Assembly (NCBI GenBank): GCA_964434285.1
Contig: CAYSUJ010000002.1
Span: forward strand, 57,913 to 121,912
DNA: 64,000 nt
Source: an uncultured Candidatus Saccharibacteria bacterium
GTDB taxonomy: Bacteria; Patescibacteriota; Minisyncoccia; Phycocordibacterales; UBA2100
Direction of reading: 5' to 3'
Both the position numbers and the translations under genes were made by a program. The stretch's first letter is position 1. Each line of letters begins with the position of its first letter. The notes under the pieces were generated by a model, which made no database searches, had not been told where the DNA came from, and worked only from the letters and a program-made list of their open reading frames with translations. Positions 2,255 through 62,472 of this stretch are shown piece by piece.

Positions 2255-2496
2255 AGACTGGTTTACTTACGAGAGTGAAAGTAATAATATGCCTCTACAC
2301 AACCAATATTGAGCCGCAAGGCTAGTGCCTAAACCATTTGCTTCGGCGGGTGGCATGGCATGAAATCGTTGAGGATAGAAAACCCGTCATTCAGGGCGTC
2401 CTCAACGTTGCGGAGGGAAACTTCCGTAGGGGCCTAAAAACCCTCCTGGTGGCGGGCTTTGTGTTTGCCACCGGATTACAAACGTAATTCGGATAC

Positions 2497-4626: not shown

Positions 4627-5087
4627 GTACCACCGGTCATCATGACACCGGGGTGTTCAAAAGTGATACGGAGGGGTATCAAAAAGAACACTCGACTGGT
4701 GTTCATAGTGAAACCCACAATAGAGAATAAATACCAAAAGAGGTATTTACAAGAATGGTTTTCTGGAGAGGAAGAGGTCTGGAAGAGTAAAGAGAATGAC
4801 TCTGCTCATCCCTCCAGAAGACCGCTTGTAAACATTCACTAATGTACAACAGTTGGAACTTGTTATACCTATATTCTAAGCCATATTTTGCAGTTCTCAC
4901 TGCATAATCGGCTTCCAGAAATATATGGATATCGAATCTCTCAAGGACTACTTCATCGCCGACCAGATACAGCGTATCGAATTACTCACACGAGACGAGC
5001 TAGTCCGTGAACTTATCTCAATCAAATCAGCGGAGCTGGAAGCCATGACCCCTCACGACCTTCTGAGGCTCTGCGAGACAAAAAAAT

Positions 5088-25866: not shown

Positions 25867-26000
25867 TAGGCGGCGAGGCGTGCGCGTCCCTTGCGCAAGC
25901 GACGCTGGATGACGCGTCGGCCGTTTTTGGTAGCAAGACGGGCGCGATACCCGTGTGTTCGAGCGCGCTTTCGTTTCTTTGGCTGGTAGTTTCGCTTCAT
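25866..26000 (-). CDS. rpmH: 50S ribosomal protein L34
   Basis: Hand translation gives [44 protein letters not shown]. It is below the 60-aa ORF-track threshold. Confidence 0.9.
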
Positions 26001-26057
26001 GCGGAGACTATAGCCTAAAAAGCCACTTTTTCCAAGCCCGCCTCGATATCCCCAGTG

Positions 26058-26066
26058 TTATACACA
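26058..26066 (+). promoter_or_regulatory. DnaA box (TTATACACA, matches TTATNCACA) in the rpmH-dnaA intergenic region
   Basis: 9-mer read directly from the sequence, upstream of dnaA. Confidence 0.45.
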
Positions 26067-26187
26067 GGTTGTAAACACTTCCTCACTGTGTCACAACCAC
26101 TTCACGAGCAGAGACGCACGCGTATAATAGCCACACTATGCGTGCGTGCATATCGTTTGTATGTGATCTCCATAGTGCTCTCTCACT

Positions 26188-32358: not shown

Positions 32359-33375
32359 TCAAATCAATTTTGGTTGATCCATTTTTGGCATTTCTGCCCC
32401 CAGGTGCGCATATCCTTTCTCTGTGGCCACACGCCCGCGTGGAGTTCGCTCCAGAAGACCAAGTTGCATAAGGTAGGGCTCGTGGACCTCTTCGATCGTC
32501 GCTTCTTCTTCTGAGAGCGCGGCGGAGATGGTTTTGAGGCCGACGGGACCGCCTTTGAATTTGTCGATGAGGATTCCCAGAATGTCTCGGTCTATTTGAT
32601 TCAGGCCGAGTTCGTCCACTTCTAGAAGCGCGAGTGCTTTTTTCACCGTCTTTAGATCGAGCATCTCGTCGCTCACCTGTGCGAAGTCGCGACAGCGCTT
32701 CAAGAGATAGTTCGCGGTGCGGGGTGTTGCGCGGGAGCGGCGGGAGATTTCTTTCACCGAATCATCATCGACGGCGATCTCGAGAATTTTTGCTGAGCGA
32801 TGGAGGATGGTGCCAATCTCCGCCTCGGTGTAGTAGGTGAGGCGGAACGTGCCGCCGGAAAAGCGTGAGCGAAGCGGTGAGGAGAGCATCGAGATGCGTG
32901 TGGTTGCTGCGATGAGGGTGAATGGCGGGAGCTCGAGTTGCACGGTGCGCGCCGAAGGACCCTTGCCGATCACGATATCGAGGACGCCGGACTCCATAGC
33001 GGGGTACAGAATCTCTTCAATCGTGCGATTGAGGCGGTGAATTTCGTCGATGAAGAGCACATCACCCGGTGAGAGGTTGGTGAGAATGGAGGCGAGATCG
33101 CCTACGCGCTCTATTGCGGGGCCCGAGGTGGAGCGAAGGGAGGAGCCGATCTCTTTCGTTATCAAATGGGCGAGCGTCGTCTTCCCGAGACCGGGCGGAC
33201 CATACAAAAGAATGTGTTCCGGTTGCTGAGATCGACCCTTGGCAGCGGCGAGGAGGATGCGAAGGTTCTCCTTGATGGTGGCTTGTCCTACATATTCGTC
33301 CCAAATGCCAGGGCGGAGTGCCTGGTCGAGCGAGCGAGCGGACTTACCTATAGTTTCTTGGGTTTTTTGGGACAT
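32359..33375 (-). CDS. ruvB: Holliday junction branch migration ATPase RuvB
   Basis: Walker A GPPGLGKTTLA, Walker B VLFIDEIHRL, sensor region. Start moved to MSQKTQET (ATG at 33375). ORF track start is 33468. Confidence 0.9.
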   Translation of the reverse strand: MSQKTQETIGKSARSLDQALRPGIWDEYVGQATIKENLRILLAAAKGRSQQPEHILLYGPPGLGKTTLAHLITKEIGSSLRSTSGPAIERVGDLASILTNLSPGDVLFIDEIHRLNRTIEEILYPAMESGVLDIVIGKGPSARTVQLELPPFTLIAATTRISMLSSPLRSRFSGGTFRLTYYTEAEIGTILHRSAKILEIAVDDDSVKEISRRSRATPRTANYLLKRCRDFAQVSDEMLDLKTVKKALALLEVDELGLNQIDRDILGILIDKFKGGPVGLKTISAALSEEEATIEEVHEPYLMQLGLLERTPRGRVATEKGYAHLGAEMPKMDQPKLI

Positions 33376-33376
33376 A

Positions 33377-33405
33377 TTGACAACAGCACCCTGACATGCT
33401 ACACT
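33377..33405 (+). promoter_or_regulatory. sigma70-like promoter candidate: TTGACA, 17-nt spacer, TACACT, reading rightward into the ruvB-pilB gap
   Basis: Hexamers and spacing read directly from the sequence. A hairpin plus T6 (tggcgttaccgcgccatttttt) follows about 12 nt downstream. Confidence 0.3.
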
Positions 33406-33688
33406 AGCTGACAGAAGTGGCGTTACCGCGCCATTTTTTGTTTGCCACGAAGGCACAACAAAACTCAATCAGGGGCGCAGATCTCCGAGCATACCAGGAC
33501 TCCTTCAAGGATGAGGCGGTGCCCGCTTTATGCGGATCCACTACCTCTTTCCTCAGACTTTGTCCGACTTTCGATGTTCTATTGAAAGCATGCTCGGAGA
33601 TGTGCGACTCTCACGAGAATTTCTACAGAAACGATAGCATCGAAACGCGAATACACAACATATTTTTCGTGTCGTGATGTACACGATA

Positions 33689-33761
33689 CAAAAAACACCG
33701 ACGCAAGCCCGCACACTAATGTAAAAACAAACATTAGTGTGCGGGCAAGTCGGTGTTTTTT
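33689..33761. terminator. strong bidirectional intrinsic terminator: 15-bp perfect stem gcccgcacactaatg / cattagtgtgcgggc, flanked by an A-run and a T-run
   Basis: The sequence caaaaaacaccgac...gtcggtgtttttt is itself palindromic. It lies downstream of pilB on the minus strand. Confidence 0.7.
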
Positions 33762-33880
33762 GTGATTGTTCGGGCAAAATATGTTCTGAGGGTCTCTCGC
33801 AGGTCGACGGGCCGAGAGTGAGCGCTGGCAGAGCACTGCCAGACAGCGACCCGAAGAACATATTTTGACTGAACAAACCT

Positions 33881-35593
33881 TTATGAAATTGTTTCGAGCA
33901 TCACTTCGTCGTGAAGATCGACGACGCGGCCAAGTTCATCGAGTGATGTGACGCCTTGTAAGACTTTCACCGCGCCGTCTTGTGCCATGCGGCGGATTTG
34001 TTGGGGTTTTGCCGCGCGCCAGATCTCGCGTTCGCTCGTTGTGGTGCGGATCACCGCTTCTACTGCTTTGTCCATGAGAATAACTTCAACAACACCAACG
34101 CGGCCTTTGTAGCCGATGCCGCCACACTTTTCGCAACCCTTGGCGACCCATGATGTATCGCGCTTTTCCGGTACACCCTCCGGGTGGGGGATGTGTGCGA
34201 GGAGGAGTTCCATCGTGTGTGCGTCTTCTGGCGAGAGCGGTGTTTCCACACGGCAGTGTTCGCAGAGTTTGCGCACGAGGCGTTGTGCCATCGAAACGGT
34301 GAGAGCGGCGCCGAGAATATCAGCGTGCATGCCCATGTCGATGAGGCGGGGGAAGGTACCCGCGGCGTCGTTCGTGTGAAGCGTCGAGAACACCAAGTGA
34401 CCGGTGAGCGAGGCATTCACGGCAGTGGAGGCCACTTCTGCATCGCGGATCTCGCCAACCATGATGATGTCGGGGTCCTGGCGGAGTGTGGAGCGCAAGC
34501 CCGAAGCGAAGGTGTAGTCTTTCGAGACTTGCGTCTGCACGACGCCAGGAAGGTGATATTCGATCGGGTCTTCGATTGTCACCACTTTGATTTCAGGGTT
34601 CGAGACTTGTTTCAGGAATGCGTAGAGTGTTGTTGTTTTACCGCTACCAGTCGGGCCGGTGTTGAGAATCATGCCGTTTGGCTTCGCAATTTCCTTATTG
34701 AAAATCTCCATCAGATACGAATCGAAGCCGAGCTTCTCCATCGGGAGTGCGATTGTGGATGGATCGAGAATACGCATCACGATGGTTTCTGCATAGGCGC
34801 CCGGAAGCACCGAGGCACGGATTTCTATCTCTTTTTCGTTGACCTGAATGGAGAAGCGGCCGTCTTGTGCGGCGTTTTTCACGTTGAGCTTGAGTCCGGA
34901 GAGGAGTTTGAGGCGAGACGAGAGAAGATTGTAGGTAGGGCCGTCGAATATGGTTACTTCAATGAGGACGCCGTCGAGGCGATAGCGCATGCGCACACCG
35001 GTTTCCTCCGGCTCGAGGTGCACGTCGGATGCTCCGAGTGCGAGTGCTCCAGCCATGATGACTTCCAAGACGCGTGAGATGCGATGGGTGTCTTTACTTC
35101 CTGCTAGATTTTGAATTTCTACCTTCACATCTGCAAGCGTCTTTATTTCCGCCAGCATGCGCTGGATGGTTTCGTTGGAGAGTGTGAGGAGGCCGGCCTC
35201 TGTTTCGGTTGCAAATGAGATGTCGTGGTAGCGGTCCCATGCGTGATCAAGCGAGGCGCGAGAAACGATAAAGCGGCGCACCTCAAACCCGAGGCGCTCA
35301 ACATTTTGTATGGTGCGCACCGTGTCGTCGCGCTCGGGGGAGCGAGCGGCGATCCAGATTTTTTTATTCAGCTTATGAAAAGCGGCCACTTCGGTTTCGC
35401 GCGCGTCTTTTTCAGGGATCAGGCGGAGTGCATCGGTATCAATAGACTTTTTAGTGAGATCCACATACTCGACGCCGTATTTACCCGCAAGCATTTCTGC
35501 AAGCTGCTCTTCCTCGCGTCGATGCAGCTCCTCCAAGCGCTCTTCCTGCTTATGCTCATTGAATTGGGCTCCCATGCGTATATAGTAGCGCAC
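33881..35593 (-). CDS. pilB: type IV pilus / type II secretion assembly ATPase PilB/GspE family
   Basis: Walker A GPTGSGKTTT, Asp box, Walker B IIMVGEIRD, His box, and a tetracysteine motif CEHC...CEKC. 570 aa. Confidence 0.85.
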   Translation of the reverse strand: MRYYIRMGAQFNEHKQEERLEELHRREEEQLAEMLAGKYGVEYVDLTKKSIDTDALRLIPEKDARETEVAAFHKLNKKIWIAARSPERDDTVRTIQNVERLGFEVRRFIVSRASLDHAWDRYHDISFATETEAGLLTLSNETIQRMLAEIKTLADVKVEIQNLAGSKDTHRISRVLEVIMAGALALGASDVHLEPEETGVRMRYRLDGVLIEVTIFDGPTYNLLSSRLKLLSGLKLNVKNAAQDGRFSIQVNEKEIEIRASVLPGAYAETIVMRILDPSTIALPMEKLGFDSYLMEIFNKEIAKPNGMILNTGPTGSGKTTTLYAFLKQVSNPEIKVVTIEDPIEYHLPGVVQTQVSKDYTFASGLRSTLRQDPDIIMVGEIRDAEVASTAVNASLTGHLVFSTLHTNDAAGTFPRLIDMGMHADILGAALTVSMAQRLVRKLCEHCRVETPLSPEDAHTMELLLAHIPHPEGVPEKRDTSWVAKGCEKCGGIGYKGRVGVVEVILMDKAVEAVIRTTTSEREIWRAAKPQQIRRMAQDGAVKVLQGVTSLDELGRVVDLHDEVMLETIS

Positions 35594-49895: not shown

Positions 49896-49964
49896 AAAAT
49901 TGGAGTGATCTTGATAATTTAATTATAACTTATTTTGTAATGGAGTTCCATTTTTACCCTTACG

Positions 49965-50141
49965 CTACGCCGTTTTTTCGACTTTTCCATTTTTTAATTT
50001 CCGAGCTTTTGCCAATGCGATACCTCTTTTTGTTGCCTTGCTTCTTTGCTCATATTCAAAGCGTGCAAGACCAAAAGAAATCATATTAACCATAAAATCA
50101 CGGTAATCTATAAGCAATTCATTTGTTGTTTTCATTTTCAT
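49965..50141 (-). pseudogene. remnant of a serine recombinase/resolvase catalytic domain (C-terminal alpha-E region only)
   Basis: A 58-aa ORF found by hand. The segment ISFGLARFEYEQRSKATKRGIALAKARKLKNGK matches the resolvase pattern G.FAEFER....RTK.GLA.ARARG.KGG. Confidence 0.35.
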
Positions 50142-50295
50142 TTTTTACCCAGTCCTTTTTGATCGGACGATAGGATTGATTAACTGCTAGTAATACTGCG
50201 ACGGCTTCATCGAGAGCGATTTCATCTGGCAGAACTTCTCCAAACTCATCGTTCCAAATTGCTTTGAACTCCTTTAACGCTTGGTCGCTAATCAT
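50119..50295 (-). CDS. small hypothetical protein (58 aa, acidic)
   Basis: Hand translation: MISDQALKEFKAIWNDEFGEVLPDEIALDEAVAVLLAVNQSYRPIKKDWVKNENENNK. It overlaps the neighbouring genes at both ends. Confidence 0.2.
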   Translation of the reverse strand: MISDQALKEFKAIWNDEFGEVLPDEIALDEAVAVLLAVNQSYRPIKKDWVKNENENNK

Positions 50296-50566
50296 TTGCG
50301 TGTAGGAGTTGCTTCACTTCTTTAATCGCTGAAATGAAGCTCTTGGGTTCGACCTTTGCTCTGCCATACAAAAAATCCTCCACAAGTTCCGCTTTGCCAT
50401 CAGAGTTAGTGAAAGCAAAGTAAACCTGTCGAGGATTAGTCCTGTTTATATGAGACAGCTGAAAGCCATTAGCAATGAGAAAAGCCGTGATATAGAAATC
50501 TTTGGTTGTGAAGCTTTTCGCATTTACATCTTTCATTCTTCGAGCATACGCAAAAAGACCTGCCAA
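50288..50566 (-). CDS. small hypothetical protein (92 aa), unrecognised family
   Basis: TTG start per the ORF track. The pattern FTTKDFYITAFLIANGF is reminiscent of small phage/ICE-associated proteins of unknown function. Confidence 0.3.
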   Translation of the reverse strand: MAGLFAYARRMKDVNAKSFTTKDFYITAFLIANGFQLSHINRTNPRQVYFAFTNSDGKAELVEDFLYGRAKVEPKSFISAIKEVKQLLHAND

Positions 50567-50601
50567 CTATATGACAGGAGTTGATACCACAATCTGTAAG
50601 G

Positions 50602-52984: not shown

Positions 52985-54314
52985 CGATCTTATCTATCGT
53001 CAAAATCCCTGTCTCAAGAAATAGGTCTTCGAGTTGTGTGTGGTCGATGTCGGCGTTTGATAATTTTTTCCCAACTACATAAAGTAAATCCTTAGCTCGA
53101 ACCAAAACAACAGGAACACGAGTGACTCTGTAAATATCCTTTAGTGAGCTATCAAGTGATGTTCTATCGTTAAACTCTGACGAGACGATAAGAAAAGATA
53201 CTTTGTCGACTCTTTGTCTTTGGAGTTCTCTTTGTTTATTTTTAATATATTCAACAATCTCTCTATCCTGTGTACCGATCGTATACTCTTTTTCACGAGC
53301 TTTTGCATCGTACACGACGGCGTAATAACCCGAATGCCCATCAGAAGAAATTGCGACACCATCTGGCTCTCTACCTCTTCCTTGACCTAATTCAGTCGCA
53401 TTAAAACCTAGAATTGTAAAAACATAACGGAGTTTTGTTTCAAACGCCTTTTCAGGTTTAATGTTTCTTTTTATTGACCATTCAGTTTCTTGATTCAATG
53501 CAAGTTTTTCAAGATCGGCAACAATAGAAGGAATCCAACTTTCATCGTCCACTTTAATTGCCTGAGTCGATTTACTTTGATTAGGAGTTGTCTTTATGTT
53601 TTCTTCTATAACATCTGTATGTTTTTTGGTGAACTGCTTCCAAAGAACGTGCTCTACAAACCATACAGGATGACGATCATTTACATTTGCTTTTTCAATA
53701 TAAAAAGTACGGATTGCAGAATATATTTCTACAAAGTATTTATATTCATCTCCAGTTGTCTCTTGTGTTTTGAAGTCAAAACCAAGATTTTCCAGCACAT
53801 TTTTTGCTGACCCATAAAAAACTGGGAGAGTTTCAGGACTTTGAACTTCCCAAAAATAAGACAACATAAAAGACAGATTCACTCTCGGAATACTTTTAGG
53901 ATTGTCGGATTTTGTCTTGAGCTGAGTTAGGTATTCTGCGAGATTATTTATCTTTACTACCGCTTCATCTAGTGTTTGAGGTAAAGAGAGGGCTTCTTTT
54001 AAGTGATCATCTTTTTCAGAATCCTCAATGTTTTTTACAAACTGATTCAACTGCATTTGACCACTAAAGCCACTAAATCCCCAATATGGATATTTACGAC
54101 TCATCAAATCACTTTTCTCCTTAAACTCAGTAGAAGATAGAGCACCTTTCAGAAACTCATTAACAATATCTTTAATTTCAGCGATGGCTTCAACTCTCTT
54201 ATCATCAAAAGATGCAAACTCTATATCAACACCATTATCGGTAACAGTAGAGGATTTTTGAAACTCCTCTAGGTATACTCGCAATTCGTTTTCTTGTTCT
54301 TGTGTAAGATTCAT
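52968..54314 (-). CDS. protein with unknown N-terminal domain and a C-terminal Mrr-type PD-(D/E)xK restriction-endonuclease-like domain
   Basis: C-terminus FETKLRYVFTILGFNATELGQGRGREPDGVAISSDGHSGYYAVVYDAKAREKEY matches the Mrr_cat pattern (GDGGIDG...QAK). Start is likely ATG 54314 (MNLTQEQ) rather than 54422, which overlaps hsdR. It overlaps the downstream nuclease gene by 17 nt. Confidence 0.5.
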   Translation of the reverse strand: MNLTQEQENELRVYLEEFQKSSTVTDNGVDIEFASFDDKRVEAIAEIKDIVNEFLKGALSSTEFKEKSDLMSRKYPYWGFSGFSGQMQLNQFVKNIEDSEKDDHLKEALSLPQTLDEAVVKINNLAEYLTQLKTKSDNPKSIPRVNLSFMLSYFWEVQSPETLPVFYGSAKNVLENLGFDFKTQETTGDEYKYFVEIYSAIRTFYIEKANVNDRHPVWFVEHVLWKQFTKKHTDVIEENIKTTPNQSKSTQAIKVDDESWIPSIVADLEKLALNQETEWSIKRNIKPEKAFETKLRYVFTILGFNATELGQGRGREPDGVAISSDGHSGYYAVVYDAKAREKEYTIGTQDREIVEYIKNKQRELQRQRVDKVSFLIVSSEFNDRTSLDSSLKDIYRVTRVPVVLVRAKDLLYVVGKKLSNADIDHTQLEDLFLETGILTIDKIVDVLG

Positions 54315-54327
54315 AAATCCTAATTTG

Positions 54328-62239: not shown

Positions 62240-62472
62240 TTAGCTCGGATAGACTCTGAACCACACGCCAGCTAGGTCTTGCGACCCCATAGACCTTTCG
62301 ATCTATGACCCAACGAAGAGCCACTGAACGTGTGGTTCAGAATCTTCGTTGGGGTTTCGCTCCATATTTACCAACAAAAGTCAGTAAACTTAGGAGCATT
62401 TTTTATTCAGTTGTATATATATTTTAGCAAAAATACACCTTAAAGCAAAGGTTTTTAAGCGTCTGTGGAAAA

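Follow-up and report, generated by a model that had tools for sequence, protein, structure and literature searches.

The gap at 33376-33880 is predicted to encode, on its + strand, an independently transcribed non-coding structured RNA whose length is about 350 nt here, compared to about 210 nt in minimal relatives, and that this is a real structured sRNA gene was judged very probable. The gap is bounded by the stop codon of a pilB-like gene for a type II/IV secretion ATPase (33881-35593; Pfam T2SSE in relatives) and by the ATG of ruvB at 33375 (coding sequence 32359-33375, 338 aa), both on the - strand, within the 64,000-nt stretch of DNA that was analysed as a whole and is called the window here. 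The whole sRNA gene comprises a promoter (33377-33405), a start near 33413, a conserved core (33468-33614) and a terminator (33688-33763), all read on the + strand. The first-pass annotation had proposed a rightward structured RNA of about 300-350 nt running from promoter to big terminator, and this proposal stands, with the transcript extending on the + strand from about 33413 to about 33765.

The gap had also been called exceptional. It is among the largest in the window but it is not unique, as crude tiling with ORFs left about six other ORF-poor gaps of 300-700 nt. Stretches of this kind are located at 4627-5087, 25867-26187, 49896-50601, 52985-53489 and 53811-54327, and none of them matched Rfam at gathering thresholds. 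The folding energy of the ruvB-proximal gap is far past the shuffled expectation on both strands, with z = -12.1 for the + strand and z = -10.7 for the - strand. The same window contains two copies of the LOOT RNA (Rfam RF03000), at 2326-2444 (+) and 62274-62396 (-), with scores of 70 and 78 bits.

Covariance-model matches, folding and covariation define the conserved core (33468-33614, +) as three helices, P1, P2 and P3, which meet in a three-way junction with at most about 5 unpaired nt and together span about 127 consensus positions. P1, the long closing helix, pairs 33472-33492 with 33590-33611; it contains the perfect 12-bp long-range pairing of 33481-33492 with 33590-33601 that had been noticed initially and that extends to 33471-33492 with 33590-33611, and across the family it is bulged and 20-28 bp long. 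P2 (33497-33565) is a long irregular arm with a conserved AGGAyG...yUUCCU/CUAUCCU pairing, in which the invariant nucleotides are AGGACG...GGU...CyAUCCU. The P3 hairpin (33568-33588) has the form ACUUUC...GAAAG in the window and ACUUU-loop-AAAG in the family. Family-wide conservation is limited to 33468-33614, and the 5′ hairpins, a hairpin at 33637-33680 and a palindrome in the terminator are lineage-specific additions.

Alignment of six cores with MAFFT, without model fitting, gave an RNAalifold consensus of 49 pairs, of which 29 show compensatory changes and one is an invariant U:G, and the individual minimum-energy folds concurred with this consensus. In 19 sense cores, 92.8% of the cells pair, compared to 40-45% (about 42%) in slid controls, and double changes occur at 35 of the 49 pairs; none of 500 shuffles reached the observed values. 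When both clades were combined (24 cores), 92.4% of the cells were paired and 37 of the 49 pairs showed double changes. The counts for the 19 and 24 cores were made on model-fitted alignments, which lean towards structure, and the unfitted six-core result and the slid controls serve as the guard against this bias. A covariance model built from the six cores (R1) matched the window at 33468-33614 (+) with 48.6 bits (E 4.5e-8), and a second model (R2) gave 85.4 bits (E 3.6e-15) for what was its only sense match in the window, where the core is single-copy.

The RuvB of the window falls in the Patescibacteria, near Kaiserbacteria, with 80% identity to the RuvB of locus L002; the homologues are 337-338 aa long and cover 100% of the window protein in alignment. 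Plain blastn of the gap against 80 ruvB loci gave no match. The regions upstream of ruvB in L001-L006 showed the same architecture when they were read by eye and for structure, and since the similarity was seen only in this way, a plain nucleotide search would wrongly imply that relatives are without the region. Further loci were collected via RuvB homologues and by a context-blind DNA pattern over metagenomes. Eight true copies were recognised by covariance model among the 80 pattern loci kept, the others being mostly chance matches, and all eight are flanked by pilB and ruvB and run opposite to ruvB. The core is present upstream of ruvB, on the opposite strand, in all of the 27 related loci examined, both Kaiserbacteria-like and Nomurabacteria-like. 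The first-pass annotation had suggested that covariation of the region be examined across related genomes; the helices covary strongly, and the region is kept in these 27 loci. Six Nomurabacteria-like loci, whose RuvB is about 70% identical to that of the window, gave full-length matches of 31-39 bits to the Kaiserbacteria-derived model. ruvB is the constant neighbour of the sRNA, whereas the gene on the other side varies among pilB, TrmB and hypothetical genes; pilB is the usual, non-obligatory neighbour, and in L085, L212, L214 and L004 other genes take its place or separate it from the sRNA.

A search of about 70 ruvB loci from other phyla with R2 produced no match, and no gap was present upstream of ruvB in Doudnabacteria, Falkowbacteria and one ‘Saccharibacteria’ locus. 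L003, L006 and L010 are not detected by the covariance models; in L003 and L006, P1 and the AGGACG/CUAUCCU motifs can be recognised by eye. L010, a distant genome labelled Bdellovibrionales MAG (RuvB 59% identical), carries opposite ruvB, at about 2230-2540, a TTGACA-17-TACTAT promoter, a long closing helix (CUGUAGACAA / UUGUCUACAG) and a terminator; this unit is an architectural analogue only. A scan of viral contigs for the core found none.

The sRNA promoter (33377-33405, +) has the form TTGACA-17 nt-TG-C-TACACT, with a TG extension, and is the sole promoter-like site within 33200-34000. Its -35 hexamer begins 2 nt from the ruvB start codon. The match is by itself not significant in the window (2 matches compared to 1.5 expected), and its weight comes from conservation across orthologous loci, not from window statistics. 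TTGACA/T-16/17-TAnnnT, usually with the TG, was kept in 15/15, 7/8 and 4/4 loci of three locus sets, the eighth locus of the second set being one in which sequence does not cover the promoter region. The rightward TTGACA-17-TACACT promoter of the first reading is thus present, and its hexamers are conserved.

The transcript would start near 33413 on the + strand, at the A of a conserved CAGAAG, and this putative start is followed by a 5′ stem-loop and a U-rich tract (33413-33443, +). In the stem-loop, which had been recorded as a hairpin with a T-run after the promoter, 33416-33423 pairs with 33428-33435, and a U-run continues to 33439. The hairpin and U-tract are retained in related loci with different stem sequences (for example GCGGA/UCCGC, UCCCGC/GCGGGA and GCGCU/AGCGC). 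The hairpin is missing from L002, L125 and L132, indicating that it is accessory. A GC-rich hairpin with a U-tract and covarying stems is found in the window (33416-33443) and in L084, L085, L087-L091, L094, L116 and L152, where it is placed just 3-30 nt or so past the predicted start. It looks like an intrinsic terminator at the extreme 5′ end of the RNA, a placement that no model considered explains. A further small hairpin (UUGUUUGCC...GGCACAACAA; 33437-33462, +) is lineage-specific, being present in the window and L081 only.

The sRNA terminator (ACACCGAC...GUCGGUGU followed by U6; 33688-33763) has outer arms (33688-33702 and 33749-33763) that form the perfect 15-bp stem that had been described at the outset, to which an inner perfect 16 bp is now added. 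This inner element is a palindrome (GCCCGCACACTAATGT / ACATTAGTGTGCGGGC) that sits in the terminator loop at 33707-33746, with arms at 33707-33722 and 33731-33746; in L081, where the terminator stem is the same, a plain GCGCAAGU loop takes the place of the palindrome. Because of the excessive length of its loop, the window terminator escaped a simple terminator scanner. The terminator is flanked by an A-run, such that read-through from pilB on the - strand could also stop there. Related loci have ACACCC..GGGUGU terminator stems followed by UUUUGUGGU, and in the Nomurabacteria-like clade the role of terminator falls to P1 and its U-run. In its 3′ part, the sRNA of the window also contains a lineage-specific hairpin (33637-33680, +) that includes the initially listed ‘tcgtgatgtacacga’ and is shared with L081, L084 and L085 only.

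A second hairpin, at 33776-33866, had been listed as part of the RNA. It is present, within a separate imperfect hairpin element just past the pilB stop codon (33766-33876, no strand assigned; arms 33766-33797 and 33845-33876), but it does not belong to the sRNA: it comes after the terminator, and in the closest relative its orientation is reversed. The element is probably the pilB terminator. Its inner 91 bp (window 33776-33866; L081 2555-2645; L082 607-697; L083 606-696) aligned by blastn in plus-to-plus orientation, with 90% identity to L081, L082 and L083, even though the flanks are reversed. This pattern suggests a 91-bp inversion between terminal inverted repeats (AAAATATGTT / AACATATTTT), probably mediated by these repeats.

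The inserted palindromes and the invertible hairpin element, together with an 86-aa ORF at 33417-33677, would fit the notion that the region is not a gene for an RNA, but either a protein ORF or a set of hairpins left by a mobile or repeat element. This notion was given almost no credence. The frame of the ORF, which had been doubted from the beginning, is interrupted by single-base indels in the closest relative (L081), its substitutions are distributed over the three codon positions as 10/7/10, with no third-position bias, and no ORF is common to the related loci. In addition, the window contains one copy of the core, 27 loci keep it in synteny, its pairs covary, and the viral contigs scanned contained no match. 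The spurious 86-aa ORF should give way to an ncRNA feature in the annotation.

Known RNA families were searched on several levels. Scanning the 64-kb window with Rfam 15 at gathering thresholds returned only the two LOOT RNAs and three tRNAs, all outside the gap, and a permissive scan of the gap (E <= 10) returned only hairpin-type miRNA matches to the big terminator hairpin. For the motif in six related loci, Rfam gave nothing at E <= 5 and likewise none at gathering thresholds. ARAGORN found no tRNA or tmRNA. These results are in line with the original judgement that the RNA is not RNase P RNA, tmRNA, SRP RNA or 6S RNA. A divergent member of one of these four families, or of another Rfam family, would have the size, strong promoter, terminator and rod-like shape that are typical of stable RNAs, and none of the four is otherwise present in the window; such an identity is nevertheless very improbable, given the negative scans and a tight three-way junction without family-specific features. 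P4-type RNase P sequences, an SRP domain IV motif, tRNA-like ends and a 6S-type central bubble are all absent from the consensus. The conserved AGGACG, GGU, CUAUCCU and ACUUU/AAAG are not known as motifs of RNase P RNA, SRP RNA or tmRNA.

The ruvB-facing RNA resembles 6S RNA in its abundant-type promoter, its length of about 200 nt, its long closing helix and its elongated shape, but differs in having a branching hairpin at the junction and a closing helix that is not formed by the 5′ and 3′ ends. 6S RNA was rejected on the basis of the tight junction, which leaves no large central bubble, and of the lack of an RF00013 match even at permissive E-values. Hammerhead-like, T-box-like and SRP-like resemblances, seen by eye, were dropped as not conserved across loci. 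A riboswitch or cis-leader for a + strand gene was also rejected, since what follows downstream is limited to the terminator and to the convergent pilB, met from its 3′ end, and since a helix of the length of P1, 20-28 bp, is not switchable. Searches of the literature did not turn up any account of a ruvB-facing structured RNA. The family is new, in that it has no Rfam 15 match; its general kind, a structured sRNA running from promoter to terminator combined with a cis-antisense RNA, is familiar. Its fold is more elaborate than usual, and the promoter-in-transcript geometry has been conserved.

This geometry results from a candidate ruvB promoter inside the sRNA unit. On the - strand of the window, a candidate extended -10 element (TGCTATCGT) is located at 33631-33639, with a -35-like TTGTGT at 33658-33653, and TGnTAnnnT was found at a consistent position on the ruvB strand in 21 of 22 loci. 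The conserved tail ACGAUAGCA, at 33631-33639 in the window, corresponds on the ruvB strand to TG-Y-T-A-n-n-n-T, where only the TG, the TA and the final T are fixed; this is the pattern expected of a -10 element, and the tail was read as the ruvB extended -10 for this reason. A ‘cgatagcatcg’ hairpin had been listed here initially; the sequence is present, but it is better read as the extended -10 on the other strand. A pseudoknot between ACGAUAGCA and the CUAUC or GGUGAYGCU loops was also tried, and was rejected as it is without covariation and is broken in L085 and the window, whereas the -10 reading fits.

In the window, the ruvB mRNA would start near 33624 and would carry a leader of about 250 nt that is antisense to the sRNA core. 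The sRNA would begin 38 nt upstream of the ruvB ATG, with the ruvB ribosome-binding site outside it. Throughout the clade of the window, the candidate ruvB -10 lies just inside the sRNA terminator, and the conserved terminator stem provides a TTGC -35-like box; the ruvB leader of this clade, about 250 nt long, would be antisense to the sRNA over its full length. The six Nomurabacteria-like loci have a perfect TGCTATAAT for ruvB, 25-35 nt past the sRNA start; the predicted ruvB mRNA of this clade would overlap only the sRNA 5′ end, by about 25 nt, with the core wholly outside it. In the Nomurabacteria-like loci L004, L005 and L212-L215, the sRNA -35 box is formed by ruvB codons 1-2 (ATGTCAAGC). 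Under both arrangements, the predicted ruvB promoter would be contained within the sRNA transcription unit.

With the candidate ruvB promoter of the window clade upstream of the whole core, the ruvB leader would hold the complement of the core, and the - strand does fold well beyond chance (z = -10.7). Both observations would agree with a cis-regulatory element in the 5′ UTR of the ruvB mRNA, with the + strand promoter being incidental. Several asymmetries make this improbable. The excess of G:U cells over A·C cells, 84 to 20 and, with both clades together, 116 to 29, favours the + strand. At one near-invariant pair, 14 of the 19 sequences have U:G and five have G:C, and on the - strand this U:G would become C·A. 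In 14 of 19 sequences, folding is less stable for the antisense than for the sense strand (p = 0.002). TTGACA/T-16/17-TAnnnT is carried by the strand opposite ruvB in every locus with sequence covering the region, and at the terminators of L002, L089-L091, L094, L152 and others the U-run is found solely on the sRNA strand. Furthermore, the TGCTATAAT of the six Nomurabacteria-like loci is found on the ruvB side of the core, which would place the core outside the leader. An assignment of the RNA to the ruvB strand, which was made from two G:U pairs in P1, was overturned by the opposite-strand promoter, the terminators and the G:U/A·C and energy asymmetries. Promoter conservation, strand-specific terminators, the G:U excess over A·C and sense-fold stability thus place the RNA on the + strand.

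How the sRNA might act on ruvB was considered in the light of this arrangement. Control of ruvB by convergent-promoter interference combined with antisense action is the proposed mechanism, and is held at close to even confidence. The sRNA promoter and the ruvB promoter would face each other, and firing of the strong sRNA promoter would drive RNA polymerase over the ruvB promoter, causing occlusion and collisions. The same transcription would yield a stable antisense RNA able to base-pair with the 5′ portion of the ruvB message. The combined effect would be to set the level of RuvB, and also of the downstream yebC/ruvC where these are co-transcribed. The conserved fold may confer RNA stability or present a partner-binding surface, which is the least supported step of the proposal. 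Certain features count against the mechanism. A covarying three-way junction with invariant AGGACG/AUCCU/GGU is not required by pure interference or antisense action, the core of the Nomurabacteria-like clade would share no stretch with the predicted ruvB mRNA, the sRNA of the window appears to leave the ruvB ribosome-binding site uncovered, and the terminator-like 5′ hairpin would be unexplained.

A different possibility is that of a structured RNA acting in trans, as part of an RNP or as a decoy for a protein or RNA polymerase, with the fold itself being the function and the position at ruvB reflecting only compact-genome synteny or co-regulation. This possibility is less likely than not. 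It would account for the invariant junction and loop nucleotides with their heavy covariation, and for a full consensus promoter, which is typical of abundant stable RNAs. The location of the Nomurabacteria-like core outside the predicted ruvB mRNA also favours it, suggesting that the fold has a function which does not depend on pairing with ruvB. However, trans action does not predict that the linkage to ruvB should be strict (27 of 27 loci) while the other neighbour changes, that the predicted ruvB promoter element should always be inside the sRNA unit, or that the -35 box should be built from ruvB codons 1-2 in one clade and lie 2 nt from the ATG in another. A combination of the two ideas is speculative and, on the whole, unlikely. 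The sRNA would represent a new class of trans-acting structured RNA of Paceibacteria-type CPR, a scaffold or decoy for a recombination or transcription protein, and its production would be hard-wired against ruvB transcription by the face-to-face promoters, which would result in an RNA-based toggle in organisms for which very few regulators are known.

Convergent-promoter interference with antisense action has precedents among characterised systems. RnaG of Shigella flexneri is an ncRNA transcribed from a promoter that faces the promoter of its target, icsA; it is complementary to the target 5′ region and controls icsA by transcriptional interference and antisense-induced attenuation (PMC2879508). 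This layout would match the one predicted for the window's clade. There is no sequence or structure kinship between the two RNAs, and the ruvB-facing RNA differs in having a covarying three-way-junction core across orders and, in one clade, in a predicted overlap with its target mRNA of just 25 nt or so. The promoters of the prgQ/prgX (Qs/Anti-Q) locus of the Enterococcus plasmid pCF10 likewise face each other and give transcripts that overlap and are a few hundred nt long, and the combination of polymerase collision and antisense RNA leads to switch-like behaviour in a plasmid conjugation system with a regulatory protein. In contrast, ruvB is a housekeeping repair gene on the chromosome for which no protein regulator is known, and its RNA is unrelated.

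SOS-linked cis-antisense RNAs of the SymR/symE type are part of toxin-like systems, and are short RNAs that cover the ribosome-binding site. The ruvB-facing RNA would share with them the placement of a small antisense RNA over the 5′ end of a gene of the DNA-damage or repair sphere, whereas it is long and elaborately folded, and would leave the ruvB ribosome-binding site uncovered in the window. The LOOT RNA of the same genome is comparable as a conserved, covarying RNA of unknown function from mostly metagenomic, CPR-type genomes. The two differ in fold and sequence, with no Rfam cross-match, and the ruvB-facing RNA is strictly gene-associated, unlike most orphans.

The Patescibacteria (CPR) have tiny genomes with few transcription factors, and almost no regulatory RNAs have been characterised in them. 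In the ruvB-facing RNA, a structured RNA is strictly tied to the gene of a Holliday-junction helicase, and the promoter geometry predicts that the two would be transcribed in a mutually exclusive manner. The finding fills an annotation gap, and gives the study of RNA biology and gene regulation in bacteria that have not been cultured a concrete, testable starting point.
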